Shown here: positions 32,270 through 54,944 of the stretch, piece after piece
Layout of the letters: every line of letters starts with the position of its first letter
Numbering within the stretch: position 1 is the first letter of the stretch
Virus record (IMG/VR): IMGVR_UViG_3300020441_000003
Location: 1 to 64,000 of that record
From: a virus
Taxonomy: Duplodnaviria > Caudoviricetes
Strand: one strand, 5' to 3'
DNA: 64,000 nucleotides
The notes under the pieces: generated by a model
What the model was told of the DNA's origin: nothing
Seen by the model: the letters and a program-made list of their open reading frames with translations, nothing else
Database searches by the model: none
Position numbers and translations under genes: made by a program

Positions 32270-32820
32270 TAGTCTATGAAAGCTTTTTGTGGTGGCGGTA
32301 TTAGATTTGCATAATCTTCAAATGGTTTTAAAACATCTTCTCTAGTTGACTGTATTTCATTAGCAACATTGATGTATACATTCCAGACGGCATCATAATA
32401 CTCTAATACTCTTCTTGCATCTGATCTTAAAGGGTGATTTGAACCCTCTCTGCCAGCCGCTATAACATCTATAGAATCTGTGAATCCATATGATTCAGAT
32501 TGTTGATACACATAATCTTTACACATTTCATTTAGATTTTCTGAATATTGATTGTTTAGATTTACATTTTCTGGTGGTGCAGAATTTTCAATGTAAGTTT
32601 CTATTGCATCTATTTCAGTATCGTTTAGATTTACTTTCACTTGTTCATCAAAACAGACATTATCTTTCCATTCTAGTATTTTAACTTCTATGTCGTCATA
32701 GACTACAACATCGTATTCAAATCCTAATTCAGGTTTATCTGTATTTTCAAAGTTGTATTGTAATCCATTCGGTTTTCTAACAGTTAGAGTTCCGTTTTCA
32801 TCGTATATAAACATATTCAT
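32269..32820 (-). CDS. Hypothetical protein (possible fibre assembly chaperone)
   Basis: Acidic 183 aa next to fibre genes; function inferred from position only. Confidence 0.55.
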   Translation of the reverse strand: MNMFIYDENGTLTVRKPNGLQYNFENTDKPELGFEYDVVVYDDIEVKILEWKDNVCFDEQVKVNLNDTEIDAIETYIENSAPPENVNLNNQYSENLNEMCKDYVYQQSESYGFTDSIDVIAAGREGSNHPLRSDARRVLEYYDAVWNVYINVANEIQSTREDVLKPFEDYANLIPPPQKAFID

Positions 32821-32837
32821 AATAACTCCATTATATC

Positions 32838-34391: not shown

Positions 34392-35600
34392 TTATCCAGT
34401 TATAGGACTGCCTGGCCACGAACCTGCTGGGTCACCGTCCCACCTAATTACAGGCGTTCTGCCTTGTCTTGCATATGTAGACGGACTTCTGTGATTGTAT
34501 GTAAAAGGTGTTCGACCTTGTCTTGCATAAGTCGATGGTGATCTATGGTTATAAGTCAACGGACTTCTATGTTGATATGTCAAAGGACTTCTATGTTGAT
34601 ATGTGCCAGGTTGTCTTGAATCTCTAATATTAGGTTCTTGTGCATTTGAAGCCACTTGATAGATTGCAGGTTGTCTTGCATCTCTAATATTAGGTTCTTG
34701 TTGGTTTCTAATAAACGGATTCTGTGCATTAACAATAGAAGGCTGTTGTTGGTCACGAATATTAGGTTCTTGTGCATTTGAAGCCACTTGATAAATCAAT
34801 GGTTGTCTTGCATCTCTAATGTTCGGTTCTTGTCCAGCCCTTATAAAAGGATTTTGTGCATTGGCAATAGAAGGCTGTTGTTGGTCACGAATATTTGGTT
34901 GTTGTGCGTTTGAGGCAACTTGATATATAAGAGGTTGTCTCGCATCTCTAATATTAGGTTCCTGTTGGTCTCTAATAACAGGTTGTTGATTAGCTCTTAT
35001 ATTTGGTTCTTGTCCTGACCTGATATTTGGTTCCTGTGCATTTGAGGCCACTTGATAAATTAGTGGTTGTCTTGCATCTCTAATGTTTGGTTCTTGTTGC
35101 GATCTTATATTTGGTTCTTGTTGGTCTCTTATATTAGGTTGTTGTGCTGAACGAATATTTGGTTGTTGTGCATTGGAAGCCACTTGATAAATTAGTGGTT
35201 GTCTTGCATCTCTAATGTTTGGTTCTTGTGCATTTCTGATACTTGGTTCTTGAGCCGACCTGATATTTGGTTGTTGAGAAGACCTAATATTTGGTTCTTG
35301 TGCTGATACAGGATTTCTATATGTGAAAGGCGACCTGTGATTATATGTAAAAGGCAACTGATAACCAACAGGGTTTCTGTAACCGAATGGTGATCTATGA
35401 TTATATGTAAACGGATTTCTGTATGTAAAGGGCGACTGAAATGTAAATGGTTGTTGTCCTGCTACAGGGTTTCTATATGTAAATGGATTTCTATATGAAT
35501 ATGTTTGTTGACCAGACACAGGTGACCTATAAGTGAAAGGGTTTCTTCCACTGTTTGGTTGTCTTGCGTTTGCTATTGTTGGTTGCTGTGCTGACGGCAT
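34392..35600 (-). CDS. Pro-punctuated repeat fibre protein B (mirror partner of 35604-37436)
   Basis: 48 x-x-P units; QEPNIR-rich middle, YQHRSP-rich C-terminus. Confidence 0.85.
   Translation of the reverse strand: MPSAQQPTIANARQPNSGRNPFTYRSPVSGQQTYSYRNPFTYRNPVAGQQPFTFQSPFTYRNPFTYNHRSPFGYRNPVGYQLPFTYNHRSPFTYRNPVSAQEPNIRSSQQPNIRSAQEPSIRNAQEPNIRDARQPLIYQVASNAQQPNIRSAQQPNIRDQQEPNIRSQQEPNIRDARQPLIYQVASNAQEPNIRSGQEPNIRANQQPVIRDQQEPNIRDARQPLIYQVASNAQQPNIRDQQQPSIANAQNPFIRAGQEPNIRDARQPLIYQVASNAQEPNIRDQQQPSIVNAQNPFIRNQQEPNIRDARQPAIYQVASNAQEPNIRDSRQPGTYQHRSPLTYQHRSPLTYNHRSPSTYARQGRTPFTYNHRSPSTYARQGRTPVIRWDGDPAGSWPGSPITG
34452..35588 (-). repeat. Coding tandem repeats of 18/24/30/36 nt with a 132-nt super-period
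   Basis: Five DARQPxIYQVASNAQ blocks 44 aa apart. Confidence 0.9.
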
Positions 35601-35603
35601 AAA

Positions 35604-37436
35604 CTATTTCGGTAAACCGCCCCCTGGATTCATATTTTCCATGTTATGCACTAACATACCATTAGCAAAGAAATTATGATTTTCATTTACTCCCGATAAG
35701 TTATATACTTGCATGTCTGTGTTTTCGTTTATAGAAATTATTTCTAATCCTACATCGTCTGTTCTGTCAAACATAATCGCATCTGTCATTGAGAATAAAC
35801 TATCACCAACTTTAAGTTCATGAGAGTTTACGCCCTCCATCCAATCATGTTGTCTCTGACATTTTTCAACATCAAATGCTCCCCATTCTCCGTTAGTCAT
35901 CATTAGTGGATGACTATCTGTGACTTGTAATATTCTTCCGTCTGATAACTCTACATCATATATAGAGTCTATTCTTGGTACCATCACATGATATATTGAT
36001 TTTGGTTCTATTATCTTTGTGCTTTCGTTCCAAGTCATTATGTATTGTCCATTCACACAATGCTCGATAGGCGCATGACTGCCATCTCCTAACCAAATCA
36101 TTGTGCCAGGTGCGAAACAACCGCCACCAAATGGTATCTGAATCGGATTTCTATGTTGATATGTAAACGGCGATTGAGATGTAAATGGTTGTTGTCCGTT
36201 TACAGGATTTCTATATGTAAATGGTGTTCTTCCTATAACTGGTTGTTGTCCATTTACAGGGTTTCTGTATGTAAATGGATTTCTTGCACTATTCGGTTGT
36301 CTTGCATTACTTGGTGATTGTGCTGACCTAATATTTGGTTCTTGTGCGTTTACAGGATTTCTATATCCTCTCGGCGTTCTTGCATTTCTGATATTAGGTT
36401 GTTGACCAGATACAGGTGATCTATAAGTGAAAGGCGATCTATGCTGATATGTAAACGGTGACCTATGGCCATAAGTAAGAGGCGATCTAAAGTTATAAGT
36501 AGACGGACTTCTATGTTGATATGTAAACGGCGCTTGATAACTTCTAGGGTCTTGATATATAGAAGGCGATCTATGTTGATATTCAAACGGACTTCTATGT
36601 TGATAAGTTGTAGGCGATCTATGTTGATAAGTTGCAGGTGACCTATGTTGATATGTAAACGGCGCTTGATAACTTCTAGGGTCTTGGTATATAGAAGGCG
36701 ATCTATGTTGATATGTAAACGGTGACCTGTGTTGATAATTAGACGGACTTCTATGTTGATAAGTTGTAGGCGATCTATGTTGATATGTAAATGGCGCTTG
36801 ATAACTTCTAGGGTCTTGATATATTGACGGACTTCTGTGTTGATATATTACAGGCGTTCTTAAATTATATGTAGACGGACTTCTATGCTGATATGTAAAC
36901 GGACTTCTGTGTTGATATGTAAAAGGCGTTTGATAACTTCTAGGGTCTTGGTATATTGAAGGCGATCTATGTTGATAAATTATCGGTGTTCTTAAATTAT
37001 ATGTAGATGGACTTCTGTGTTGATAAGTTGCAGGCGACCTGTGATTATATGTGAAAGGTACCTGATAACTTCTCGGGTCTTGATATATTGACGGACTTCT
37101 GTGTTGATATGTAAAAGGCGTCTGATTACTTCTTATATTAGGTTCTTGTTGTGACCTTATATTGGGTTCTTGTTGGTCTCTAATTACAGGTTCTTGTGCA
37201 TTCGCAATATAAGGATATGGTTGTTGGCCATTTCTAATAAAAGGATTTTGAGCGTTCGCAATATAAGGATAAGGCTGTTGAACGCTCTCCTGTCCTGATG
37301 CATTGTTCCAACCAGAAGGCGTTTTGATATAGATTTGATCTACATCTTTCCATGTGCCTGAAGCTGTTTTTACCCAAGCACCTCGGGTTGCTGACCAACC
37401 TGAAGGAGTTTTTACCTTTTGTGAACCTGTTGCCAT
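35604..37436 (-). CDS. Pro-punctuated repeat fibre protein A with C-terminal Hint domain
   Basis: N-terminal VKTxSGxW hairpins, 48 x-x-P units, Hint motifs. Confidence 0.88.
   Translation of the reverse strand: MATGSQKVKTPSGWSATRGAWVKTASGTWKDVDQIYIKTPSGWNNASGQESVQQPYPYIANAQNPFIRNGQQPYPYIANAQEPVIRDQQEPNIRSQQEPNIRSNQTPFTYQHRSPSIYQDPRSYQVPFTYNHRSPATYQHRSPSTYNLRTPIIYQHRSPSIYQDPRSYQTPFTYQHRSPFTYQHRSPSTYNLRTPVIYQHRSPSIYQDPRSYQAPFTYQHRSPTTYQHRSPSNYQHRSPFTYQHRSPSIYQDPRSYQAPFTYQHRSPATYQHRSPTTYQHRSPFEYQHRSPSIYQDPRSYQAPFTYQHRSPSTYNFRSPLTYGHRSPFTYQHRSPFTYRSPVSGQQPNIRNARTPRGYRNPVNAQEPNIRSAQSPSNARQPNSARNPFTYRNPVNGQQPVIGRTPFTYRNPVNGQQPFTSQSPFTYQHRNPIQIPFGGGCFAPGTMIWLGDGSHAPIEHCVNGQYIMTWNESTKIIEPKSIYHVMVPRIDSIYDVELSDGRILQVTDSHPLMMTNGEWGAFDVEKCQRQHDWMEGVNSHELKVGDSLFSMTDAIMFDRTDDVGLEIISINENTDMQVYNLSGVNENHNFFANGMLVHNMENMNPGGGLPK
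35643..36119 (-). other. Hint (intein-like) domain, 159 aa, no endonuclease
   Basis: Starts CFAPGT, block B TDSHP, ends VYNL...HNFFANGMLVHN; +1 residue is Met. Confidence 0.9.
36144..37280 (-). repeat. Coding tandem repeats with a 132-nt super-period
   Basis: Five RSPSIYQDPRSYQ blocks 44 aa apart. Confidence 0.9.
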
Positions 37437-37454
37437 GTTATATCCTAATTACTC

Positions 37455-39929
37455 TTATGAGTATAGTATCCATAAATCTCCAACTGCACCATCTGAACTA
37501 CCAGGCGCTGAAGTTGATTGATATATGTTTCTCGCTACACCACCACTATTATTTGCGTATGATGTTGTAATTTGTGAGGCTCTAAAGTTTGCCTCTGAAA
37601 ATGTTAAGTTACCAGTTGATGCACCAGTAAATGAACCAGTTCCTACTGTCACTCTATCTGCACTTTCATCCCAACCAATAAATACATTGTCTGAACTTCC
37701 TCTTTCAAAAACAAGACCCATATCGTTGCCTGGTGTGCCTGTTGTTCCAGTTCCTAATTCTATTAATCTATCTTCGATAGTTGTGTTTGTTGATGATGCA
37801 GTTGTTGTTGCACCATTAACAGTTAAATTACCTGTGACTGTTAAATCGTTTGTGACTGCTAAATCATTTCCTATTGTCACATCATCTGGTAATGAAATTG
37901 TGACACCTGCTGTTTCTGAACCAGAACCTGATACTGTAATTTCATTTGAGGTACCTGCTACAGTTGCAACATAGTTTCCTGTTGTATCTGTGCCTAGTGC
38001 AACTGAGTTAGCGGCGATAGTAGTTGATATTGATACATTGCCTTTTGCAGTCTGAGTTGCGGTACCTGTGACATCACCTGTCAATGCAAAGTCTGAGTTT
38101 GCAACTACGAAATCTAAATTACCATCTGTATCATCGTATGATACTGAGATACCTGTTTCGGTACCATCTAACATACCACCAACAAAGTCTTCTACATTTT
38201 CTTGTGTAAGTTGAGTATTGTTTGTTGATATTGAACCACCAAGTGATACTGCTGTGCCATCGATTGTTATTGAACTATTTGATAGTAATGAGTTACCAAT
38301 AGAACCTGCAAGTTTGCCAGCGGCTATCGAACCTGCCAACATGGCATTTGTGACACCACCTGCTTTAACTTGTAATTGATCTGAACTTGTTTCTATTGAA
38401 CTATCATCTACACCAACTGCAAGAGATACGGAACTTCCAAGTGATACTGAACCACCACCTGATAAACCGTCACCTGCTGTGACTGTGACTGCACTATTAG
38501 CGAGTTTGCCATTTGCGATTGAACCTGCTAACATAGCGTTTGTGACACCTGATGCCTTGATTCTTAATGCATCACTGTTTGTTTCTATAGAACTGTCATC
38601 TACGCCTACTGCAAGAACACCACTTGTTGCAGATAAACCATCACCTGCAATTGCAGTCACTACATCTGCGACTGCCTCTTTCTTAGAACTGTTATCGCCT
38701 GCATCTATAATAGCAATACTATCATTTGCAACATCTACGGCGGCCGCTGTTAGTTCGTTTAAATCTAATGCAAGTGATACTGCACCTGATGTGCCACCAC
38801 CTGAGAGTCCGTTTCCTGCTGTGACTCCTGTAATATCGGCACTATTTGAGTTTGTTATTGTTAATGAATTAGCGGCGTCATCATATGATAATGATATACC
38901 AGTTCCTGCTGTTAGTAGTGCATTTACTCTGTCATCTACTCTTTCGTTTGTGTGATATAAATTAGATGAACCCTCTCCAACACTATCTGTATTGAGAGTT
39001 AAAGAACCACCTAATGAAACTGAACTACTGTTTAATGTTATTGCAGAGTTGGCTAATTCTGCGTTTGCAACACCACCGTCTTTGATTGTGACTGCGCCAC
39101 TTGATACTGCAAAATTATCTGAACTAAATGATGCAACACCTTTGTTAGATGTAGTTGCATCTTCGGCTGAATATGTGACTGTGCCTGAACTTTCTGCAAC
39201 ATCGATTCCTTCTCCAGCACTGAATGTTATTGTTCCACCTAATGATGTTGCAGTCGAATTACTGCCATCGGTAACTGTGATTGATGAGTTTGCAAGTTTA
39301 GAGTTCGCAATCGAACCACCTAACATTGCATTTGTGACACCTGATGCTTTTACTTGAAGTGTATCAGAAGAAATCTCTATTGAACTATCATCTACTTGAA
39401 CATTAAGTGTGACATCTCCTGATGTGCCACCACCTGTCAAACCACTTCCTGCAACGACAGATGATATATCTCCTGTTTCTGATATACTTAATACACCACT
39501 AGATGCATTTAATCCTGAACCTGCCATGGCAGATACTAAATCTGCAATCGTTTCTTTTTTACTTGCGTTTGAATCGTTAGCATCTATTAATACGACACTA
39601 TCGTTTGCGACATCAACTGTAGCCGCTGTTAATTCGTTCAGATCAAGAGCAAGTGATAATGCACCTGATGTGCCACCACCTGATAATCCATTTCCTGCTG
39701 TGACACCTGTAATGTCACCTACTTGTCCGTTAATTGTTAGGGTTCCAGCGGCGTCATCATATGATAACGATATACCTGTTCCCGCTGTTAAGAGAGTATT
39801 TACTTGGTCATCAATAACTTCTAGAGCTGCTGTGGAAAAAGCAGCTGCTGTCAAGTCACCTGAACTGTCGATGACTTCCGTAGAACCAATACTAAGTCCG
39901 TTTTTGATTCTAAAATTTTGAGCTGCCAT
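37455..39929 (-). CDS. Long tail fibre-like structural protein with internal repeats
   Basis: Gly/Ser/Thr/Ala-rich; repeated ITGVTAGNGLSGGGTSG and VDDSSIE...GVTNAMLAGSIAN; ends GAVGDLWILYS. Confidence 0.8.
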   Translation of the reverse strand: MAAQNFRIKNGLSIGSTEVIDSSGDLTAAAFSTAALEVIDDQVNTLLTAGTGISLSYDDAAGTLTINGQVGDITGVTAGNGLSGGGTSGALSLALDLNELTAATVDVANDSVVLIDANDSNASKKETIADLVSAMAGSGLNASSGVLSISETGDISSVVAGSGLTGGGTSGDVTLNVQVDDSSIEISSDTLQVKASGVTNAMLGGSIANSKLANSSITVTDGSNSTATSLGGTITFSAGEGIDVAESSGTVTYSAEDATTSNKGVASFSSDNFAVSSGAVTIKDGGVANAELANSAITLNSSSVSLGGSLTLNTDSVGEGSSNLYHTNERVDDRVNALLTAGTGISLSYDDAANSLTITNSNSADITGVTAGNGLSGGGTSGAVSLALDLNELTAAAVDVANDSIAIIDAGDNSSKKEAVADVVTAIAGDGLSATSGVLAVGVDDSSIETNSDALRIKASGVTNAMLAGSIANGKLANSAVTVTAGDGLSGGGSVSLGSSVSLAVGVDDSSIETSSDQLQVKAGGVTNAMLAGSIAAGKLAGSIGNSLLSNSSITIDGTAVSLGGSISTNNTQLTQENVEDFVGGMLDGTETGISVSYDDTDGNLDFVVANSDFALTGDVTGTATQTAKGNVSISTTIAANSVALGTDTTGNYVATVAGTSNEITVSGSGSETAGVTISLPDDVTIGNDLAVTNDLTVTGNLTVNGATTTASSTNTTIEDRLIELGTGTTGTPGNDMGLVFERGSSDNVFIGWDESADRVTVGTGSFTGASTGNLTFSEANFRASQITTSYANNSGGVARNIYQSTSAPGSSDGAVGDLWILYS

Positions 39930-40135
39930 TAAAAGGTTCCTCCATCTATAGTCGAGCTGTCTAATCTAGTATCAAATCTAGAATTTGTAAAATAGAGATT
40001 TGATGAGCCTTCTGAGAGATTATCTGTATCTAAATTAGACACTGCGTTAGAAACCACTTTACCATTATTATCAATGACATCTGTTGTTCCGACAGAAACT
40101 CCATACTCTACTCTAAATTTTTTAGTGTCAGCCAT
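39929..40135 (-). CDS. Small fibre connector protein
   Basis: N-terminus paralogous to that of 37455-39929; EGSSNLYFT; ends IDGGTF. Confidence 0.7.
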   Translation of the reverse strand: MADTKKFRVEYGVSVGTTDVIDNNGKVVSNAVSNLDTDNLSEGSSNLYFTNSRFDTRLDSSTIDGGTF

Positions 40136-41501: not shown

Positions 41502-42959
41502 TTAAAATGTTCCGCCGTCAATAGCAGTGATTGATACTGCACCAGATGATACTGTAAAGTTTGCAGATGCGAATGAAGCAATACCTTTATTAGTAGTAGT
41601 TGCATCTTCACCAGCGATAGTTATGCTACCAGCGCCGTTAGTCACATCGATACCCTCACCAGCAGAGATTGTTCCTAATTGCATGTCACCATTTGAAGAA
41701 TGACCCATTAGAATCTGACCATTTGTTGGTGCAGAACCATCAATACTTGTGATTGAACCTGAGAGTGCAAGACCTGATGCTTCTAATCCACCAAATACTG
41801 CGCCAAGGGCGGTACCTGAGAATGTTGAAGAAGAATCTGTCGCACTTCCCAATGCTATGAATTTACCTGTTGAATCATCGAAACCGAAGAAACCAACTTT
41901 TGCACCTGATGAGTTATACTTAAATTTAATACCTCTGTCTAGGTTGTCATCTGAACTGTCATCGCCAATTTCAAAAACAGGGTCAGCGATTGACACTGTA
42001 GTTGAATTAACAGTAGTAGTTGTTCCACTTACTGTCAAGTTACCAGCGATTGTGACATTATCAGGTAACCCGATTGTGACGGTGTTTCCTGAACCTGCTG
42101 TTGTTATCTCGTTTGCTGTTCCAGCGAATGTTAATGTTTCACTGTCTAGATCAATTGCTAATGCGCCACCTGAATCTGCTTGAAAGTCCAAGTCTTGTGC
42201 TGTAATTAAAGACTGAATTTTGTCTTGAACGGCCGCTGATGTCATGATAGATACATCATCGTCACTAAAAGATTCACCTGATGTTTGAACCATTGCACCT
42301 GCCAATGAACCAAATACAACTGCACTAGCAGCTAATTGGTCTGCGCCTACGGCGTCATCGGCTATCATTGCTTGTTCTACAGCATCGTTAGCGATTGTTA
42401 ATGCTCCGTTTGCAGCTAAAGTTGCATCTCCTGATACTGAAACATTATCAAATGAATTTGAACCATCATGAACAAGTATTTGTCCTGATGATGCAGATGA
42501 TATGTCTGTATCTGATGCGCCTGCAATCGAACTTGTAGTAGATACGAATGATAATACTCCTGAACCGTTAGTACCTAAAACCTGACCGTTTGAACCATCT
42601 GAACTAGGTAATGTTAATGTTATATTACTACCTATTGTGTCTGGTGCTTTAAGACCTACGAAGTTTGTTCCGTTATCGGAATCTTCCATAATTTTTAAAG
42701 TACCGCCAGATGATGACCCATTACCAACTAAGAAGTCGGCAGGTGTAGCACTTGAACCATCTATGATATCGGTGTAATATTTACCACCAACTTCATGAAT
42801 AACTGCTGAACCACCTGAGTCTACAGATTCTATGTATAACTTAGCAGAAGCACCACTATTCGATCTATCTTGCACATACGCTAATTCGCCCTCAGCAAGA
42901 TCACTTACTGCTGGCGCACTCGCTCCTGTGCTTCTTTTGATTTGAATTACTGTTGCCAT
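41502..42959 (-). CDS. Tail fibre-like protein with Mtd_N-like N-terminus
   Basis: MATVIQIKRS...GELAY; G/S/A-rich; ends IDGGTF. Confidence 0.8.
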   Translation of the reverse strand: MATVIQIKRSTGASAPAVSDLAEGELAYVQDRSNSGASAKLYIESVDSGGSAVIHEVGGKYYTDIIDGSSATPADFLVGNGSSSGGTLKIMEDSDNGTNFVGLKAPDTIGSNITLTLPSSDGSNGQVLGTNGSGVLSFVSTTSSIAGASDTDISSASSGQILVHDGSNSFDNVSVSGDATLAANGALTIANDAVEQAMIADDAVGADQLAASAVVFGSLAGAMVQTSGESFSDDDVSIMTSAAVQDKIQSLITAQDLDFQADSGGALAIDLDSETLTFAGTANEITTAGSGNTVTIGLPDNVTIAGNLTVSGTTTTVNSTTVSIADPVFEIGDDSSDDNLDRGIKFKYNSSGAKVGFFGFDDSTGKFIALGSATDSSSTFSGTALGAVFGGLEASGLALSGSITSIDGSAPTNGQILMGHSSNGDMQLGTISAGEGIDVTNGAGSITIAGEDATTTNKGIASFASANFTVSSGAVSITAIDGGTF

Positions 42960-43098: not shown

Positions 43099-43308
43099 CT
43101 AGAATGTTCCACCATCAATAACAGTGGTTGTTTTCCACTTGTCTGATGCTTGGTCGTATTGAAGAAGGCCTTTATTTGTTTCGGCTGCCTCTACATCTGA
43201 AAGTTCTTGAATTGATTTTGTTGCGAGATTTACAGAAGATGCACCAATAGAAACTTGTTTCGCTCTAACATTTGGGTTTGCGACTATTCTTGCCTTTACT
43301 GTTGCCAT
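43099..43308 (-). CDS. Small fibre connector protein
   Basis: 69 aa; LSDV...GLLQYD...KW; ends IDGGTF. Confidence 0.7.
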   Translation of the reverse strand: MATVKARIVANPNVRAKQVSIGASSVNLATKSIQELSDVEAAETNKGLLQYDQASDKWKTTTVIDGGTF

Positions 43309-43640
43309 TATCGGGTTACTCCTGGTGTGACTATTGCTTGTCCTTCGACAACTCTTGTTTTATCTCCTGCACCGCTTGTAATATTTAGATCATAAACATA
43401 CCTGCCAGCATCTAGAGCTGCTGTGACTGAATCTGTCAACTGCATAACTACTTGACCATTTGCACCATTATGAGATGTTGAAAATGTTGCAGATGCGTTT
43501 GTAGAACCGTAAGTCTTTCTCATTTGAGCGGCTATCGTATAACCTGTTAAATCTAATGCATTACCTAATGCATTTTGAACATCAACAGTCAATGAGAAAT
43601 CACTTCCTTGGTCTATGAATATATTACTTATGATTGCCAT
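43308..43640 (-). CDS. Baseplate/fibre adaptor (BppU-like Ig fold)
   Basis: IDQGSDF...DLTGYT..AQMRK...GRYVYD...RVVEG...VTPGVT. Confidence 0.75.
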   Translation of the reverse strand: MAIISNIFIDQGSDFSLTVDVQNALGNALDLTGYTIAAQMRKTYGSTNASATFSTSHNGANGQVVMQLTDSVTAALDAGRYVYDLNITSGAGDKTRVVEGQAIVTPGVTR

Positions 43641-43657: not shown

Positions 43658-44431
43658 TTAATCGCTAAATTGTGCAGTAGGTACCGATTGATGTATTTTT
43701 TCTACTGTCGAACTATCTTTTTTCACAAATACTTGACTTACTTTCGATACACCTTGTGCTTGTTTCTTAAATACACCTTTAACTTTTGCTACTTGTTGTA
43801 TAGGTCTAGTTGTAATATATGGTTGTTGATATATAAACGGACTTCTATACCCATATGGTAATGTATATGGTTGTTGAGTATTAGCAGATGTTTGTGCGTT
43901 TCTTATAAAAGGACTTTGTGCATTCGAAGGATTCCTATAAGTTGACGGCGATCTATGTTGATACTGTATAGGACTTCTATGATTATAAAAAGTCGGTGAT
44001 CTATGTTGATAGATTACTGGTTGTCTAGAATCTCTGATATTAGGTTCTTGTTGGTCTCTTATATTTGGTTCTTGTGCATTTCTAATATGTGGATTTTGTC
44101 TTTCAGCAGGTTGTCTTCCGATATATGGACTTTGTGCATTTTTAATTACAGGTTCTTGATACGCAACAGGATTTCTGTAGAATGCAGGTTGTTGTTGAGC
44201 TCTCTCGTTAGGTTGTTGAGCATCTGCGATATACGGATATGGTTGTTGTTGACTTCTAATAAAAGGATTTGCTTTATTTCTAATAAAAGGATTCTGCACA
44301 CTGTAAGTTGACGGTGATCTATGTTGATACGAAGATGGTTGTCTTGCATTTCTGATATGTGGATTTTGCACATCATAAGATGCAGGTTGTCTTGCAATTA
44401 TCGGAGTTGTAAACTGATATGCTACGCCCAT
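43658..44431 (-). CDS. Pro-punctuated repeat fibre protein D (mirror partner of 44435-46012)
   Basis: x-x-P units over residues 8-210; C-terminal VKGVFKK...VSQVFVKK. Confidence 0.82.
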   Translation of the reverse strand: MGVAYQFTTPIIARQPASYDVQNPHIRNARQPSSYQHRSPSTYSVQNPFIRNKANPFIRSQQQPYPYIADAQQPNERAQQQPAFYRNPVAYQEPVIKNAQSPYIGRQPAERQNPHIRNAQEPNIRDQQEPNIRDSRQPVIYQHRSPTFYNHRSPIQYQHRSPSTYRNPSNAQSPFIRNAQTSANTQQPYTLPYGYRSPFIYQQPYITTRPIQQVAKVKGVFKKQAQGVSKVSQVFVKKDSSTVEKIHQSVPTAQFSD

Positions 44432-44434
44432 TGC

Positions 44435-46012
44435 TTATTCTCCCTCTTCCTCGTCATCATTATTAGATTCAGCACTGGCACCAACTGCAAAAACAATTAG
44501 TAAATCACATTTATGTTCTACATTTGTGTCTAAATCTTTTATCATAAATTCTAAAATAGTTGATGAACCCCTATTATCAGCTGCGGAACCCTCACTTCCG
44601 TTAGTATCAACAGTAGTGCTATAACCTATTTCAAGTCCGTGGGTGCCTAGATTTTGATATGAAGTTGTTATTCCAGTCACACCAGTCGGAACTCCTAAAG
44701 CATGTTTTCTAGTAGTGGTCTCATCTGGATTACCATCATTGGTAGTTACCGAAGTCACACCAGTGGTTGTTCGTGGCCATTGCTCTGGTGTGCCTAAGCA
44801 TCCCATATCACTTGCTAGTTCAGCATAATTAGATGCATCTGGAGTATATCCCTTACTGGCAAGTTGACCATTCCATTGTGAGACATTTAAACTGTAAGGA
44901 GATGCTGTCGGGTTTGCATAATTAACTTTTACTTGAGCTCTTGAAGCTCCTATATTTGTAAGTTTAAATATTTGAGAAAAAGAAGAAGTTCCTATATCAC
45001 TGGTTGTATAACTAAATGAACTAGATGCTGATGATGACATATTACCTATTCTAGAATGATGTGGTGTCGTATTTGATAAAGTATCAACTGAACTAGCCTC
45101 TCTTACAAGAATTTCAACATCATTAGTATTTGTATATTGAACTTTAAATTCAAATCCAGCACCTGCTACGGCAGTTGAACCAGAGGCACTTGTATCTAAA
45201 TCAAATCCACCATCAATACCAATAATACTTGAAGCTCCTTGTTGTCTTATTGAATTGCCAGTGTTCGTATCATTTGGTATACCAGCACCTGTGCCAAATC
45301 CTGTTATAAGTTCTGATGCTCTTGCAATATATTCAACTTGACCTACTGTTAAAAATCCTGATGCAGGTTGTTGATGACTGTAAGTTGTTTGATATGAACC
45401 TATTGACGGACTTCTAAAGACATATGTAAATGGTGTTTGTGCGTTTCTTATAAACGGATTTTGTGCATTTGCAATCGATGGTGATCTATGACTATATGTG
45501 CTTGGACTTTGATGCTGATAGATAACTGGATTTCGACCTGTCGCCTGATATGAAGACGGACTTCTATGTTGATATATTATAGGGTGTCTGTATGCAACTG
45601 GACTTCGATAAGTTCCTGGTGATCTATGTTGATATGTTGAAGGCTGTCTTGCTTGATAACTTACCTGATAAATCGATGGTGATCTATGTGAATATTCAAA
45701 TGGACTTCTATGGTTATAAGTCAACGGACTTCTATGTTGATATGTAAACGGAATCTGTTGCGCTCTAATATTAGGTTCTTGTTGTGACCTTATATTAGGT
45801 TCTTGTTGGTTTCTAATAAAAGGATTCTGTGTTGCTACAGGATTCTGATATGTTGACGGTGATCTATGAGCGTAAGTAGAAGGAACCTGATAGATTGCAG
45901 GAGTTCTTGCATCTCTCTGAGCAATTACTGGTTCTTGTGCGTTCTTTGATGCCCTAGCTATATAAGGTTGTTGAAAGGCCGCTGGGTGTTTGATAAAAAT
46001 ATCATCTGACAT
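44435..46012 (-). CDS. Pro-punctuated repeat fibre protein C with C-terminal globular domain
   Basis: x-x-P units over residues 14-216, then about 300 aa of non-repetitive beta-rich sequence. Confidence 0.82.
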   Translation of the reverse strand: MSDDIFIKHPAAFQQPYIARASKNAQEPVIAQRDARTPAIYQVPSTYAHRSPSTYQNPVATQNPFIRNQQEPNIRSQQEPNIRAQQIPFTYQHRSPLTYNHRSPFEYSHRSPSIYQVSYQARQPSTYQHRSPGTYRSPVAYRHPIIYQHRSPSSYQATGRNPVIYQHQSPSTYSHRSPSIANAQNPFIRNAQTPFTYVFRSPSIGSYQTTYSHQQPASGFLTVGQVEYIARASELITGFGTGAGIPNDTNTGNSIRQQGASSIIGIDGGFDLDTSASGSTAVAGAGFEFKVQYTNTNDVEILVREASSVDTLSNTTPHHSRIGNMSSSASSSFSYTTSDIGTSSFSQIFKLTNIGASRAQVKVNYANPTASPYSLNVSQWNGQLASKGYTPDASNYAELASDMGCLGTPEQWPRTTTGVTSVTTNDGNPDETTTRKHALGVPTGVTGITTSYQNLGTHGLEIGYSTTVDTNGSEGSAADNRGSSTILEFMIKDLDTNVEHKCDLLIVFAVGASAESNNDDEEEGE

Positions 46013-47933: not shown

Positions 47934-48138
47934 GTAATTTCTCTATAATATCTTTCAATAAATCTTTTATTTCTGTTACCTCTTGTTTAAGAGTATTTAT
48001 TTCAGAACGCTGAGCTTTCATAACTTCTCTGCGTTTCATCACTAATCTATAATGTTCAGTATTAGTATTTATTATAGCACTTGAAGTTTCATCTCTTATC
48101 AAGTCTATATGTCCTTCTACTTTACTATACTTACTCAT
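47926..48138 (-). CDS. Small coiled-coil protein after the VrlC-like gene
   Basis: MSKYSKVEGHIDLIRD...EINTLKQEVTEIKDLL; start overlaps the upstream TAA. Confidence 0.75.
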   Translation of the reverse strand: MSKYSKVEGHIDLIRDETSSAIINTNTEHYRLVMKRREVMKAQRSEINTLKQEVTEIKDLLKDIIEKLHG

Positions 48139-51100
48139 TATGCTAATGCCATACATCTAAGTGCTGATACTAATGGCACGATAGATGTATTCTGTGCTTG
48201 TCCTACTATCTTAATCTGGAATGCTGTGAACTCTGCAAGACCATCTGCTGTATATTCATATTCTTTAAAGTTTCTAGCATCTTGTTCAAGTGCGATATCT
48301 GGTGAACCATCTGTGTTAAAGAATTCAAATCCTAAATCATCGATAGGTGTTGTTTCATCGTTCTTCAATATCTTGAACATGAATTTTAAATCTGTGTCTG
48401 GCGGTCTAAAGTTATCTGCAATAACTTTTATTGATGATGCAGGATTTTTCAATGCAACTTTTCTTGTTATATAAACAAACTCATTATTATCACCGTCTGG
48501 TTCTGTAGATGGTGTGTAAGCTCTTCCTGTTGATACATCGCCTGATACATCAATATCATTAATTCTATTCATGATACCTAATGCACCTATTGTGCCTGTA
48601 TCTATGATTGGTGATATATTTGGATTTGCAGTTATTAATTGCAATCTACATTCTAATGATTTTGTTGTAGGTCCACCTGAAACTTCATTGACTTCATTAA
48701 CAGATGATGCAATAACACTTGGTCTTTCAAAGAAGTTATTATCATTTAATGTTATAAAGTCATTTGTTGATCTCATGAGATATGCAGTGTCTAAACTTGA
48801 TGATTCTGGAGAATTCATACCTGTTCTTCTTACACTCGGTATTAAATCACAATCTTTAAATGTTAATGATGGTATCATTGTATGTAATACATCGTAATAT
48901 AAATTATTTGTCACAAATACACTGCTACCACCACCTATTGTAGATTGTATAGCGTTAGTATATGATAAATGGAAACTTGATAAATCAGGTGTCACGCAGA
49001 ATGAATCTATATCGTAATGGTTTATACTATTGAATACTTGATTCAATGCTGATACAGGTAAACCACCTAGTGTATCACCTACACTTGCAATTGTCAATGA
49101 GACTGCTGTGCCTGAACCATTTACATCTGCAACTGTTATTGTTTCGTTAGCTGCATATCCTTGACCTGGATTACTAATAGTTGCACTTGTAGCATTACCA
49201 GATGCATCTGTTGTTATTGTTTGTATTACACAACCACCATTTGGATTACCACTTGAATTTGAATGTGTTTGAGTTTTAGCACTTACATTAAATGTTGTGC
49301 TGTTTGAACCTAATGCAGTAGAAGGAACACTAACTGTTAATACACCATTAGTTTTATCACCTGCTACTCCTGATATTACAACATTTGAATTTGTTGAATA
49401 ATTACCGTGTGAGTATGAATAGAATCTAGCAAATGATTGATTACTGTATACTTCTACACTGTTCTCTTTTATTAGATTTGCAGGTAAATGTTCGTTTTCA
49501 AATATGACATTTCCTGCAACATTTGTTGTAAACTTGGCTATCTTCATATGGAACTTTAAGTCGTCCATTTGTTCTGCACTCCAAGTAGATGCGTTTTGTG
49601 AAGTAAATAATGAACCTGCGTATGGTTGTCCTGATATTACTTGACCTGTTATTAAGTCTACTTCTCCCATTCTTGAAATGAAACACTCGTAATTGTTTGA
49701 ATTTGAGTAAACAACAAAACACATTTCTTTGCCTTCTTCAAGATATACAGGTGATTCAAAACTAAATGTAGTTGCAACTGAACCATCTTCTGATATGTTT
49801 ACATCTCCTGGATTCTTTGTGACTATTGAGAATGGTAATGTCACTTTACCAGGATATCCGTTTACTACATCTCTAATTTCTACTGAAACTGGTAATGATG
49901 CATCTTTTGATTTAAAGAATAGATCAATAGAAGTCAACATCATACCGCCATCTGCTTCTACTAAGAAAGTTTCTGCTAATGGGTCCATCCATCCTTCGTT
50001 TGTTCTCTCTGCTCTAAACACTCTTTCATCATCTGGCGCCACAAATCTATCGAATGGTGGAACTGGAGGTTGAACAGGCAACGGCACAGGCGTTGGTGCA
50101 GGTGTCGGTGCTGGCGTAGGCGCTGGTGTCGGCGCTGGAGGCGGAGGCGGAGGTGGATTAGGTGTCAACGCCGGAGTTGGAGGCGGAGGCGGTGGCGGAG
50201 GAGGTGGCGGTGGTGCTGGAGGCGGTGGAGGTGGAGTTGGTGGTAATGAACCATCACTCTCAATATTTAATCTTTCACCTCTTCTCATTATCTGCCTTTC
50301 GCCAGACAATCTCTCCATAATTACACGGCCATTTCTTGTAGATACTATCTCTGTTTGAGATGTATTTAATAATCCTTGTGCCTGATAATTAGAACTTGCT
50401 CTTGAATCAGGATTGTTTAAATTAGTTGCACTAGATGTGACTAATACTTGTCTTTGACCTGTAGGGAATCTCTGATTATCGTCATTTGGTATGTTAAAAT
50501 GACATATAACTCTTCCGTTACCATCTGTTTTTACACCAGATGTCACTGTCGTGCCTGAGTCTTGTGAATAGTTTGCATTGTCAGGTCTTACAAATTGGTC
50601 TACTCTAATACCATCAAAGTATATAAAGTGATTTGTGTTTGGTTTTAAATTTGTTGCATCAATCTTAATCTCTCTTGATCTGATGAAAGGTATAACTGAT
50701 ACACTAACAACTCTGTCATTTCTTGTTTCTACAAAGTCTTCAACTACTGATGTTCTTACACCTGTTCTTGATTGTATCTCAGGCGTATCTGTAATTTCTC
50801 TAGTTATTGTTGTGCCTTGTGTCCATTCACCGCCTTGAGCTGGGTCGCCAGACCAAGAACCTGGTACTGCAGCTACTGATTCTGTCTCTACGACTTGTGG
50901 TTCACCGACCCATGTTGTTTGCCATTCATTCCAGACTGTTCCTAGAGAGTTTTCGTTTTCTGCTAATACTGCATCAAAGTTTCCTTCTCTGTTAATCCTG
51001 ACATCAGGAAGTTGTTCGTGGTCATTCCATATATCTGTTTCTGGTGTAAGTTTAACATTACCAATAAATGCAAAGACATGATATGGGTTTACATTGATAT

Positions 51101-54100
51101 GTCTTGATGCTTTATTTTGATTTACATAAGATATTTCTGAAAATGGTAATGTAATAAGATCACCAGTCTTTTGATAACCTGATGATTGTGCAGTGTTTAA
51201 TGAAATATCAAAGAATTGTGTATAATTTTTAGGTCTTAAATGACCTAATTTTGTATCTATTGCAACATTGTAATCTGGATGTGTGACATCTCCTACTTTG
51301 TGACCTCTAAAATTATCTACTAAAAATCCTGATTTGAATCTATCTAAACCATCTGCATCTAAAACTTGTAATGTTTGTGTGTCTTTTTCTAATAAAGATA
51401 ATGCTGTGACTCTTTCTAAGTTTGTGACTCTTTGATTAATTTTACCAATATCTGACATGGTAAATCTTCTATAATCTCTTGACCTTGAACGAATCTCATT
51501 TGCATTTTTAGTAAATGGTGGCACAAACAATTCGAACATTTCAATCGCATCATCTATGGCGGCTGGTTTTCTAGGCGTAATCGAAGGAACACCTTGTGCT
51601 AATTGAAAACTTCCACTTTTGTGTAAGAAAATCTTATCTATTCTAGGCACATAAAAAGATATATTACCTTTTGTCATAGAAGTTGGTAATGGACATCTAG
51701 AGAACGATGCTCTAGTTGTTGTAATACTTGGAGATGATAACGATGCCTCAAAACTTCTTGACTCATATGCAAATGGTGATACTAAATGACCTGCACTTGA
51801 ATGATCTGATAAGTTTATTGTATTCTGTATATCAAAGTCGGTACTAGATTGACCAAATGTAGAACTTCCAAATATTTGACCAACAGATGGTCTATAGTCT
51901 ACTGTATCTGCTAATTCAAATGTTCCGTCTGGTTCAAAACCACCTGCATCTACTTTATTTGGCGAGAATATTGGTATTTCATCATAATCAACACCAGAAT
52001 AAGAAGATACATCATAATAATCACCAGAACCACCAACAAAGTAATCAAACAATATTGTTATCGGGTTATTAGGTGTTGGTTCACCTGTCTTTAATATTAA
52101 TTTACCAAGATCGTAATAACCATCTCTTTGACCGTTATCTAAGAAATATCTATTTTTAATATCTGGTGAACTTGTGCCAATAGATGTTAGTGTTGCAACT
52201 GCACCTGATGTTTCGTCTACTACAGTTTCGCCTGCTGTAAATTTAGCATTACCAAGATAGTAGAAAAATGCAGTAGTATCATCTACAACTGTATCAATAA
52301 GTTTTGCACGAACACCTGTTGTTTGTCCTTTTACAATATTACCTGCACCAAATGTTCCTGACGATACATTAAATACTGCGTTTGGTGGTGTTGCGACTTC
52401 TACACTTTCTGAACTATCTGTTGTTGTAGTTCCTGGAACTGCTTCGAATATACCTCTAATTTTAAATATATCTGATACACCTAAACTGATTTCTTTGTGG
52501 TCATATGCAGTTCCATAAAAGTTTGTTTGTGCATCACTCTTCATTACTCTTAATGCACGATACTCTCTTAAATCTTTACTCTTTGCAGTTGGGCTATTTA
52601 CACTTACTGTATATGATGCTCTTACAATAGCATTTTCATCAGCAGATGTTCCTATTGTGACTGCTCTGTTATTACCTGAGGCAGCTGCAAATGTCACATC
52701 GTCAGCATGAAATACTGCACCATCGATTCTCCCACTTGATGGACTTGCAGTTGCATTCATAATTGCAAATTGATAATTATCGTTATTAACTGGTTCAAAA
52801 CTTTCGTTTGATTGTTTTGTTAATGTAATGGTACCACTTGCACTAACTTGAAATTCTTTTTGTATTTTGACTGTAGTTTCTGTGCCTGTATGTGTTTTGA
52901 CATAATCTCTTGGCCATGCAAAGATAGATGCTGACTGATCTTGATTATAAAGTTTTGCTCTCTTTCTAATAAGACCTGCACCTGGATTTGCAATTACACC
53001 ATTTGAACCAGGTGATGCAACTGTTTGTGCATTTGAATTATCTGTGACTGTATTAATTACTTGTTCAGCACCATTACCATCTACAATTATATCGCCTGGT
53101 CTTAATTCGTTTAAGAATGCTGTTCCTGTTCCTGTTAATGCACCACTTGATGACAATACTGTTGCACCCGATATAATTTTAACACTATCTGTTGGTATAG
53201 TTGCAGTGAAGTTTTTGTCTGCACTTGAAGCAGTTGATGGTTCTTGACCAACACCTCTTGCATCTTCTATATTATAAGTTCTGATAGCAGTTGGATTTAC
53301 TGTTGTGCTACTATAATCACCAACACCTTTTACTTCTAATGCATCTGCTGTAGTAAATGTGCCGACTACATCATGCAACATTACAAAGTTATTTGAATGG
53401 TCTGAATATGCAACTATACCTGTTGCACCTGAACCACCAGCACTTGTGCCAGTATCTACAATACCTGTGACTTTATCACCTGGTTTAAATTCGTTTGCAT
53501 CACCAATTGTAATACTAATTTTTGTAAACATCTTGATATCAAATAGATATAGATTGCTTAATGTAGATGATTGTTCATCTATGCATCTTACTCTTGCAAA
53601 ACCGATATGTGTGTTAGGTATTGTATTTCTTGTTGATGCATCTGATTGATCAATAACAGTATCTAAAAGTTTGATAGGTTTATATGATGTCATTGTTGTA
53701 GAATCACCAAACTCTGGAAGACCATGCACATTTTGTAATCTTAATTTATTACCTAATCTCGCAGGTGTATTTGCGTTTGATAATGATTCTGTTGTTCTTG
53801 CTTTATTGATGTTTAGATTTGTTGTGCCGTCTTTTGTGACATCAAAACCTTTGACATATGCTTTACCTGGTGATATTTGCATGACGACTTTACTTTCGTC
53901 ACCACCTTGGAATGATTCGTAAAAACCTCTATTGAAACCATCTATTAAATGTTCTCTGAACGAACTTGTAAATTGTCTTACTACAAAGTCACCGTTTGCA
54001 TCAAAGGTTCTTCTTGCTAATGCTTGTTCTATGTGACCATATATTGGTCTATTGATTTCTAATTCTATAACACCTGCATTTACTCTTCCAAGTTCTACAA

Positions 54101-54944
54101 AGTTTGTATCTGTTGTGTCTGTTAAACTAAATTTAGAAAGTGTTAATGTGAATTTAAGTCTGTCTGCACCTGGAGCGTTTTCGTTTGTTGTTCCTTGTGA
54201 GTTATCTAATAGTGATGTATCTGATGCTGATGTTTCTATACTCTCTACAACATTTATACCAATTCTAAATGATGGTTTACCACTATATTTTTCTAATACT
54301 AATGTTTGTGCATCTACTTTTACAAAAAACCCTCTGATGAATACAACACCCTCATTAATATTTGCAACAGATGAACGACCAACAAAATTTGTATCTGTTG
54401 ATTCACTAACAACTTTAAATTCGTTGTTGTTTGATGCGACTGATATTCCGCCAGATGAACTTACTGTGACTTCTCTAAGTTCTTCAGCAGCTTTAAATCT
54501 TACAGATGCTTGAACTGTAGAAGAACCATCTGAACCCTCTTGTAAATATTTAACTATAAGTGTATCGGGGTCTGTAGATGTCTGTGCTACTGTTGTTATG
54601 ACCTCTGCGACTGCACCAGAACTCTCTCCTTGAATAATTTTACCTTTGAAGTCTGCAATGTATGATGATACATCTGCTGTTCCTGCGCCATTTGGGTTTG
54701 TTGCCTCTAGTTTAACAAACTCGACATCCATATCGATGTCTGTTTCGGCTCCATTTACGATAGAACCCTCTTTAAACATGTGATCACCGAATCTTTGAAC
54801 TTGATTCTGTAGTAATGATTGAGATTGTGTTAATTCTCTTGCTTGAACTGGACGACCTGCTCTAAAGAGAACTTTATGGAAGTTTTTACTCTCTGAAAAG
54901 TCATCGTAATATGGTGATATGTTTAAATCTGTTTTCTGCGACAT
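48138..54944 (-). CDS. Large VrlC/DUF4815-like baseplate-associated structural protein
   Basis: LNISPYYDDF, RPVQARELTQ, APGADR, RFKSGFLVDNF, DPLAETF; 2268 aa. Confidence 0.85.
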   Translation of the reverse strand: MSQKTDLNISPYYDDFSESKNFHKVLFRAGRPVQARELTQSQSLLQNQVQRFGDHMFKEGSIVNGAETDIDMDVEFVKLEATNPNGAGTADVSSYIADFKGKIIQGESSGAVAEVITTVAQTSTDPDTLIVKYLQEGSDGSSTVQASVRFKAAEELREVTVSSSGGISVASNNNEFKVVSESTDTNFVGRSSVANINEGVVFIRGFFVKVDAQTLVLEKYSGKPSFRIGINVVESIETSASDTSLLDNSQGTTNENAPGADRLKFTLTLSKFSLTDTTDTNFVELGRVNAGVIELEINRPIYGHIEQALARRTFDANGDFVVRQFTSSFREHLIDGFNRGFYESFQGGDESKVVMQISPGKAYVKGFDVTKDGTTNLNINKARTTESLSNANTPARLGNKLRLQNVHGLPEFGDSTTMTSYKPIKLLDTVIDQSDASTRNTIPNTHIGFARVRCIDEQSSTLSNLYLFDIKMFTKISITIGDANEFKPGDKVTGIVDTGTSAGGSGATGIVAYSDHSNNFVMLHDVVGTFTTADALEVKGVGDYSSTTVNPTAIRTYNIEDARGVGQEPSTASSADKNFTATIPTDSVKIISGATVLSSSGALTGTGTAFLNELRPGDIIVDGNGAEQVINTVTDNSNAQTVASPGSNGVIANPGAGLIRKRAKLYNQDQSASIFAWPRDYVKTHTGTETTVKIQKEFQVSASGTITLTKQSNESFEPVNNDNYQFAIMNATASPSSGRIDGAVFHADDVTFAAASGNNRAVTIGTSADENAIVRASYTVSVNSPTAKSKDLREYRALRVMKSDAQTNFYGTAYDHKEISLGVSDIFKIRGIFEAVPGTTTTDSSESVEVATPPNAVFNVSSGTFGAGNIVKGQTTGVRAKLIDTVVDDTTAFFYYLGNAKFTAGETVVDETSGAVATLTSIGTSSPDIKNRYFLDNGQRDGYYDLGKLILKTGEPTPNNPITILFDYFVGGSGDYYDVSSYSGVDYDEIPIFSPNKVDAGGFEPDGTFELADTVDYRPSVGQIFGSSTFGQSSTDFDIQNTINLSDHSSAGHLVSPFAYESRSFEASLSSPSITTTRASFSRCPLPTSMTKGNISFYVPRIDKIFLHKSGSFQLAQGVPSITPRKPAAIDDAIEMFELFVPPFTKNANEIRSRSRDYRRFTMSDIGKINQRVTNLERVTALSLLEKDTQTLQVLDADGLDRFKSGFLVDNFRGHKVGDVTHPDYNVAIDTKLGHLRPKNYTQFFDISLNTAQSSGYQKTGDLITLPFSEISYVNQNKASRHINVNPYHVFAFIGNVKLTPETDIWNDHEQLPDVRINREGNFDAVLAENENSLGTVWNEWQTTWVGEPQVVETESVAAVPGSWSGDPAQGGEWTQGTTITREITDTPEIQSRTGVRTSVVEDFVETRNDRVVSVSVIPFIRSREIKIDATNLKPNTNHFIYFDGIRVDQFVRPDNANYSQDSGTTVTSGVKTDGNGRVICHFNIPNDDNQRFPTGQRQVLVTSSATNLNNPDSRASSNYQAQGLLNTSQTEIVSTRNGRVIMERLSGERQIMRRGERLNIESDGSLPPTPPPPPPAPPPPPPPPPPPPTPALTPNPPPPPPPAPTPAPTPAPTPAPTPVPLPVQPPVPPFDRFVAPDDERVFRAERTNEGWMDPLAETFLVEADGGMMLTSIDLFFKSKDASLPVSVEIRDVVNGYPGKVTLPFSIVTKNPGDVNISEDGSVATTFSFESPVYLEEGKEMCFVVYSNSNNYECFISRMGEVDLITGQVISGQPYAGSLFTSQNASTWSAEQMDDLKFHMKIAKFTTNVAGNVIFENEHLPANLIKENSVEVYSNQSFARFYSYSHGNYSTNSNVVISGVAGDKTNGVLTVSVPSTALGSNSTTFNVSAKTQTHSNSSGNPNGGCVIQTITTDASGNATSATISNPGQGYAANETITVADVNGSGTAVSLTIASVGDTLGGLPVSALNQVFNSINHYDIDSFCVTPDLSSFHLSYTNAIQSTIGGGSSVFVTNNLYYDVLHTMIPSLTFKDCDLIPSVRRTGMNSPESSSLDTAYLMRSTNDFITLNDNNFFERPSVIASSVNEVNEVSGGPTTKSLECRLQLITANPNISPIIDTGTIGALGIMNRINDIDVSGDVSTGRAYTPSTEPDGDNNEFVYITRKVALKNPASSIKVIADNFRPPDTDLKFMFKILKNDETTPIDDLGFEFFNTDGSPDIALEQDARNFKEYEYTADGLAEFTAFQIKIVGQAQNTSIVPLVSALRCMALA
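50057..50243 (-). repeat. GC-rich poly-Pro / (PAPT)n coding insert
   Basis: PPTPPPPPPAPPPPPPPPPPPTP...PAPTPAPTPAPTPAPTP. Confidence 0.9.

Follow-up and report, generated by a model that had tools for sequence, protein, structure and literature searches.

Two adjacent genes, here termed C and D, were found to encode repeat arrays that mirror each other in register within a 64,000-nucleotide stretch of viral DNA (positions 1 to 64,000 of the 89.5-kb IMG/VR virus record IMGVR_UViG_3300020441_000003; hereafter the window, to which all positions refer unless another locus is named). Sequence comparisons suggest that the two proteins are likely the halves of a split hairpin forming the shaft of a tail fiber or similar appendage. 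Gene C (44435..46012; 525 amino acids), the proposed outgoing chain, is an open reading frame with homologues and with synteny in nine related loci (L001-L008 and L020); its repeat array spans residues 16-216 (45365..45967) and is composed of Pro-bounded units of 6, 8, 10, 12, and 14 residues. Gene D (43658..44431; 257 amino acids), the proposed return chain, is an open reading frame of a type conserved beside C-like genes; its array (residues 10-210; 43802..44404) is mirror-complementary to that of C at i + j = 226, where i and j are residue numbers in C and D. A second pair with this organization is formed by gene A (35604..37436; 610 amino acids), the outgoing chain with an array at residues 55-443 followed by a Hint domain, and gene B (34392..35600; 402 amino acids), the return chain, with i + j = 438. 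All genes of the fiber module discussed here are on the minus strand.

The mirror was apparent from the positions of the prolines. Between P16 and P216, the Pro-Pro spacings of C were 12, 10, 6, 8, 6, 6, 8, 8, 8, 8, 8, 8, 12, 8, 6, 6, 8, 10, 8, 8, 8, 8, 8, and 14, exactly as listed in a preliminary description of this DNA. Those of D from P10 to P210, when reversed, were 6, 6, 6, 4, 14, 6, 6, 8 (six times), 6, 6, 8, 6, 6, 8, 8, 2, 8 (six times), and 6, which match the cumulative register of C after merging 6+6, 6+4, 8+2, and 8+6 and reading an unsplit 14 as 6+8. The preliminary description had arrived at the same cumulative register for reversed D, although its '10,6,8' masks the 6+4 and the unsplit 14; the opposed segments that it had named (SSYQATG/YPYIADA, FTYQH/NIRDS, FIRNA/SSYQH, and STY/SNA) were all located at i + j = 226. 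At this offset, 24 of the 26 C prolines were opposite a Pro of D, with the remaining two being P10, which is outside of the array, and P44, which is opposite Ser182 of D. Five prolines of D (16, 66, 108, 192, and 204) were opposite non-Pro residues. By comparison, the next best reverse offset gave 16 coincidences, the best forward offset gave 15, and C or D compared with A, B, or self gave no more than 16; 5000 shuffles of the D spacings had a mean of 13.7 (standard deviation 1.4) and a maximum of 21. With self-mirrors at this level (≤16 Pro coincidences), C and D were ruled out as self-hairpins. The A/B pair displayed 47 Pro coincidences at i + j = 438 versus 18.2 ± 2.8 for shuffles, and its spacing series differs from that of C/D as had been claimed. 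The mirror observation is confirmed and statistically robust.

The complementarity was found to extend to residues other than Pro. A pair log-odds table trained on the A/B alignment alone, with every Pro-holding column left out, scored C × D at 105 bits at reverse offset 226, with no other offset or orientation exceeding 1.6. Reciprocally, when the table was built from eight further pairs of the C/D type (L001-L008), A × B scored 330 bits in reverse and 17 forward. As each table recovers the other pair, the opposed-residue preferences are common to both and independent of Pro. Across ten pairs, units of 8 residues were the most common (141), compared with 54 of 6, 23 of 12, and 19 of 10 residues. 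In 128 of the 141 opposed 8:8 units, a Tyr-type unit, P-[FSL]-T-Y-[QN]-H-R-S, was opposite an Ile-type unit, P-N-I-R-[NSD]-[AQ]-Q-[EQT], which sets T against Q, Y against A/Q, Q against N/S/D, H against R, R against I, S against N, and F against E/Q. Recurrent pairings were also found for units of other lengths, including (i) PFTYRN opposite PV[SN][AG]Q[QE] for 6:6; and (ii) P.TYARQG.T opposite PYPYIA.AQ for 10:10. Of all typed units, 156 pairs were unlike, with 10 Y:Y and 13 I:I.

The preliminary description had further suggested that the distinct series could act as barcodes for orthogonal A:B and C:D pairing, which the scores did not demonstrate. Gapless cross pairs scored 22-33 bits versus 105 and 449 for cognate C/D and A/B, respectively; with gaps allowed, C × reversed B reached 115 compared with 151 for C × reversed D, such that discrimination by the code alone looks partial. 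Full orthogonality may not be provided by the repeat code alone, and partner specificity may be increased by the end modules, by translation of the two chains together from neighboring genes, or by the register over the full length.

The pairing was also found to covary across phages. C has 236 homologues in marine metagenomes, and when D was searched exhaustively against 1.84 billion representatives, only 125 clusters (50% identity) were retrieved, which indicates that the family is narrow. For the comparison, nine contigs bearing C-like genes (L001-L008 and L020) were fetched, together with L017, which bears an A-like gene and was informative; the pair of L018 was left out as uninformative because its A-like gene call was N-terminally truncated. 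Every fetched C-like or A-like gene was followed by a D-like or B-like gene, and in the C/D loci the D-like gene was followed by the same 110-amino acid and 70-80-amino acid genes. A gapless mirror was detected in 10 of 11 further pairs from diverged marine myophages (z 6.0-10.2), with the exception of L007, which had two gaps. The aligned arrays ranged from ~190 to 330 residues (376 in A/B) with partner lengths that covary, and the alignments were free of gaps over 194-381 columns in nine of ten pairs. When each C-like array was scored against each reversed D-like array, the cognate partner was ranked highest in eight of nine rows, with the exception among close relatives; reverse scores were 103-243 compared with 9-15 forward. 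Among the five closest loci, the homologous unit positions 88, 96, 178, and 194 were found to flip between Y:I and I:Y, with 10 locus comparisons compensated in the partner versus 3 uncompensated, and these compensated flips may be viewed as a protein analogue of compensatory changes in RNA helices. Pro spacings were even in 712 of 730 cases (97%) and odd in 18.

Single-chain forms were identified by a scan of every fetched protein for antiparallel complementarity within its own chain. In total, 15 protein clusters of 446-541 amino acids carried both the C N-terminal motif and the D tail in one chain; these start with MADEIYIN.. (compared with MSDDIFIKH.. of C) and end with ..AKVKG.F...EKIHQSVP.AQF, which corresponds to the D tail. 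One member (P0091) matched D by BLASTP at 5e-49. A strong internal mirror was present in 10 of the 15 clusters, as exemplified by P0203, in which residues 28-154 are opposite residues 300-426 with 17 Pro:Pro pairs (z 7). In locus L019, one of these single-chain forms, P0207, was the sole gene between orthologues of the 638-amino acid fiber gene (44% identity) and the 110-amino acid gene (61% identity), which is the site occupied by C and D in the window. Either a hairpin has been split into two genes or two genes have been fused into a hairpin; in both cases, the C N-terminus and D C-terminus represent the same end. The ATG of D is 3 nt past the TAA of C, and the two are in frame (TAA GCA ATG; 44429-44437); this arrangement was also detected in L005 and L006 and was absent from six other loci, such that it looks like chance and not programmed read-through. 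A search for full-coverage natural fusions using the C-D fusion P0198 retrieved none above 67% coverage. The earlier suggestion of a general rule as opposed to chance is borne out by the 11 further pairs, the cognate-best scores in eight of nine rows, the compensated flips, and the single-chain hairpins.

The ends of the two proteins differed in their conservation. The N-terminus of C (residues 1-15, MSDDIFIKH..FQQ; 45968..46012), the proposed proximal end, was invariant from M1 to H9 among 21 homologues, and its motif was also found at the start of the single-chain forms and of diverged C-like proteins. In D, it was the last ~45 residues that were strongly conserved; every D-like protein has this Lys-rich tail (residues 211-257, ..AKVKGVF..VFVKKD..EKIHQSVPTAQF; 43661..43801), as do the single-chain forms at their C-termini, and it is proposed to be proximal beside the C N-terminus. 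Such an inverted polarity of D makes sense only if D is antiparallel to C, and the conservation of the C N-terminus and D C-terminus would fit one shared proximal end. The C-terminal domain of C (residues 217-525; 44438..45364), the proposed distal tip, was modeled by AlphaFold2 (AF2) as a beta-sandwich with a predicted local distance difference test score (pLDDT) of about 90, and was found to be swapped for unrelated domains in L005-L008. Fold searches against PDB and viral structures returned only weak Ig-like/adhesin-like beta-sandwich matches (Z ≤4.3), which left the tip without a structural assignment, and a pattern scan of viral contigs for this domain found no relative. A conserved attachment end combined with a variable distal tip is as would be expected of a receptor-binding fiber.

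Based on these findings, the C array (16-216) would run outward from the virion and end in the variable beta-sandwich tip, and the D array (10-210) would begin at the tip and run back, which would bring the C N-terminus and the Lys-rich tail of D together at the proximal, attaching end. The arrays would lie side by side and antiparallel, with residue i of C opposite residue 226 − i of D. Register and partner would be set by the repeat code of Pro-bounded units of 6, 8, 10, or 12 residues, with each unit length occurring in two complementary forms (e.g., P[FSL]TY[QN]HRS and PNIR[NSD][AQ]Q[EQT]) and each unit facing one of equal length and opposite form. Antiparallel pairing of C and D is strongly supported by the covariation and the natural fusions. 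The most likely geometry would be an extended antiparallel beta ribbon of two strands, which may stand alone or form part of a bundle (e.g., of three hairpins, like the needle of T4 gp37). In such a ribbon, residues that oppose each other directly form pairs of two kinds, hydrogen-bonded and non-hydrogen-bonded, which alternate along the strand. Pro, which is without an amide hydrogen, fits only a non-hydrogen-bonded pair, and even spacing would place every Pro in this class and on one face. Thus, Pro:Pro facing and even spacing appear to be what an extended beta ribbon demands, and the outward-facing prolines would also block edge-to-edge aggregation. Shaft lengths of ~65 nm (200 residues) and ~125 nm (376-388 residues), as had been given previously, would apply only if the chains are fully extended beta strands. 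At its broadest, the proposal is of a natural, sequence-programmable antiparallel protein zipper in which two unit forms, four unit lengths, and Pro:Pro punctuation set the partner, register, and length of a beta ribbon of up to ~125 nm, with a code that evolves by compensatory unit swaps like RNA helices and works as one hairpin chain or as two chains; this full version we consider evenly balanced between being right and wrong.

Several observations weigh against a paired shaft. Like-with-like units make up ~13% of the typed unit pairs, a few prolines are without a Pro partner, and local complementarity is detected between non-cognate arrays, as in the gapped C × reversed B score above. The arrays are polar and of low complexity (Q, P, R, S, Y, and N) with no evident hydrophobic core; in the AF2 models of C and of the in-frame C-TAA-D chain P0198 they were left unmodeled (pLDDT about 30) with only the tip folded, and the Atlas model of D had a pLDDT of 0.49. 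Complex prediction of C(1-235) with D using two alignments (score 0.00, with the fold of the partner uncertain) speaks neither for nor against pairing. The support for pairing is comparative throughout, and a disordered state of the arrays may be compatible with the sequence. Taken further, this composition and the low model confidence would be consistent with intrinsically disordered, flexible, low-complexity linkers that have no defined C/D paired structure. We regard this explanation as quite improbable, as it would leave unaccounted for the exact mirror, the equal unit lengths, the complementary unit types, the compensatory flips, the cognate-best scores, and the even Pro spacing.

An assembly role for D was also considered, in which D would act as a transient chaperone or template that is antiparallel along the C array during folding and absent from the mature fiber. 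D is small and directly downstream of a fiber-like gene, which is the usual place of a fiber chaperone, and a template would likewise display mirror complementarity. D had no match to tail fiber chaperone families in Pfam or PHROG, though such a role is still compatible with the absence of a match. The single-chain forms, which hold both arms plus the conserved tail in one polypeptide, and the resemblance of the D tail and C N-terminus to a joint attachment module render the chaperone unlikely. Alternatively, C and D could each form a parallel homotrimeric fiber of their own (e.g., a triple beta-helix with 8-residue repeats), with the mirror arising only from side-by-side or end-on packing of two separate fibers. 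Phage fibers are usually parallel homotrimers, and the beta-helix of T4 gp5 is known to have an octapeptide periodicity. Parallel in-register packing would predict a forward or self match, yet the forward coincidences were at shuffle level and the register is reverse; moreover, the V.G (VxGxxxxx-type) motif was absent from the C and D arrays, and the residue-level complementarity and single-chain hairpins call for intimate antiparallel contact. Homotrimers are therefore very improbable. Scarcely credible is that the mirror arose by chance or as a by-product of nucleic acid structure or a mutational process (i.e., an inverted repeat or antisense origin). Both genes are built of common short DNA repeats; however, only direct and no inverted DNA repeats were found between the arrays, a reverse-complemented Pro codon cannot give an in-frame Pro, and reversal of a protein sequence is not known to result from any mutation. 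As for chance, none of the 5000 shuffles reached the observed value and the pattern recurs in diverged pairs. An antisense or inverted-repeat origin was ruled out by the direct-only DNA repeats and by Pro codons not mirroring to Pro.

Database searches did not place C or D in a described family. No family match was detected for either protein in Pfam or PHROG, nor was any match found in a phage GenBank collection by blastn and tblastn. In a PDB sequence search, D had no match and the profile of C homologues retrieved only a glucanase (E 0.57). The only Pfam family to touch the arrays was Cementoin (PF10511), the transglutaminase-substrate repeats of cementoin/trappin, which resemble the C/D arrays in their short, Gln/Pro-rich, hexapeptide-like repeats; C scored 10.7 bits (below the cut-off of 27) and D was unmatched, and the resemblance of C is compositional. 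Collagen-like fibers could likewise be set aside, as no Gly-X-Y pattern (G..G..G runs) was found in any array.

Among known systems, the T4 gp37 needle (PDB 2XGF; in part PMC6957217) is similar to the split-hairpin model in that its chain runs out to the tip and back with matched antiparallel strands in a thin shaft. Both are of T4-like phages, with the needle being a fiber tip that is variable at its end and conserved in its proximal part. The gp37 needle differs in that its two arms belong to a single polypeptide of a homotrimer and are held by iron ions on HxH motifs, whereas the arms of C/D are in two genes, no HxH metal-binding motif was found in any of the four arrays (A-D), the shaft would be far longer (200-390 residues), and the repeat code has two forms. 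No similarity of C or D to gp37 or to solved needle domains was found by sequence or profile in the Pfam, PHROG, and PDB searches; matched antiparallel outgoing and return strands are found here at the sequence level only, and in two chains versus one in the relatives. The antiparallel coiled-coil arms of SMC and Rad50 also resemble C/D, as wherever the periodicity of one arm is interrupted, the opposite arm has a mirrored interruption. Indeed, antiparallel pairing in SMC/Rad50 was first inferred from mirrored sequence interruptions. These arms differ from C/D in being alpha-helical heptads of a single chain with no two-form unit complementarity. In RNA helices, heterodimeric coiled coils, and the charge codes of collagen heterotrimers, complementary positions specify partner and register and changes are compensated, as in C/D; in C/D, however, each 'letter' is an entire unit of 6-12 residues in a Pro-punctuated chain that is probably of beta type. 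To our knowledge, a protein pairing code at the level of Pro-punctuated units has not been described, and none was found in the literature searched. The G5-E repeats of SasG/Aap as well as OspA provide precedent for long, thin, mostly polar beta rods, and these rods are stable without a classical hydrophobic core. Unlike C/D, they are single chains of folded repeat domains as opposed to two complementary chains, and there is no sequence relation.

The genomic setting is consistent with a fiber function. The capsid genes share 70-77% DNA identity with those of Methylophilales phage Melnitz and the Pelagibacter phages Mosig and HTVC008M, based on which the virus is a marine T4-like myophage. The gene order is gp8, a 2268-amino acid DUF4815/VrlC-like protein, a 76-amino acid gene, a 638-amino acid fiber-like protein, C, D, genes of 110 and 69 amino acids, more fiber-like proteins, A, and B, after which comes a cassette of glycosyltransferase and 2-oxoglutarate (2OG)-oxygenase genes. 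C and D are thus located at a tail fiber/host-recognition site as judged by gp8, the giant DUF4815 protein, and the fiber-like PHROG matches. In pelagimyophages, a 'host recognition cluster' is found downstream of VrlC (PMC7029224), and the C/D region corresponds to this cluster. The VrlC-like protein (48138-54944) has a mid-chain run of ~60 residues that is nearly all Pro plus Ala/Thr (PPPPPAPPPP...TPAPTPAP).

Additional features were observed in the neighborhood of the two pairs. The 110-amino acid gene (43308-43640) matched phrog_1084, with a weaker match to 'L-shaped tail fiber assembly', and was downstream of D or the fused gene in every fetched locus, including that of L019 (61% identity, as above); its product is a candidate for an assembly factor, or else an adaptor, of the proposed C/D fiber. 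Three otherwise unlike proteins of 69, 485, and 68 amino acids (43099-43308, 41502-42959, and 39929-40135, respectively; minus strand) end in the motif IDGGTF, which may serve as a docking or processing signal of the fiber module. At the tip, the centers of the single-chain forms P0203, P0091, and P0200 have a short conserved motif, ..GQLFGL[IV]TVNYPMYQIQTEQEYRYSLQN.., in place of the large beta-sandwich of C; the sequence ..SGFLTVG.. of C, just past the array, is similar to the start of this motif. A Hint/intein-like domain often ends the outgoing chain, as in the C-terminus of A (35604-36143; PF14890, 38.9 bits), L007 (10001-12088 of that locus), and L017 (3001-4314 of that locus), and in L007 it follows the tip domain of the C-like protein. 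The antiparallel model places the Hint domain beside the start of the return chain, and the two chains could conceivably undergo self-cleavage or be ligated there, at the tip. The N-terminus of A (residues 1-49; 37290-37436; repeated ..VKT.SGW..) and the D tail (..KVKGVF..VFVKK..) are both Lys-rich, repeated, and strand-like; both are proximal in the model, which suggests a common attachment device carried on different chains. Directly after A/B (31586-34376) are a GT8 glycosyltransferase fusion, a 183-amino acid protein, and a prolyl-hydroxylase-type 2OG-Fe(II) oxygenase (PF13640), and this order is repeated after the A/B-like pair of L017 (5051-7314 of that locus). With this cassette following A/B both here and in L017, hydroxylation or glycosylation of the Pro-rich arrays may take place.

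Neither a described family or structure nor a publication was found for a two-chain fiber with repeat-coded pairing, and literature searches on the array motifs or on antiparallel heterodimeric fibers retrieved nothing relevant; such a fiber would be undescribed. If the pairing is physical, it would represent a new architectural principle, namely a heteromeric fiber shaft with a register that can be read from sequence. It would provide an unusually clean protein case of compensatory covariation in which the covarying elements are repeat units, and could offer protein designers a simple natural code to test for orthogonal, length-defined beta-ribbon heterodimers. For these viruses, the pairing would account for the need of two neighboring hypervariable genes to co-evolve, and could allow fiber length and partner choice to be predicted from the genomes of abundant ocean phages, the relatives of SAR11 and OM43 myophages.

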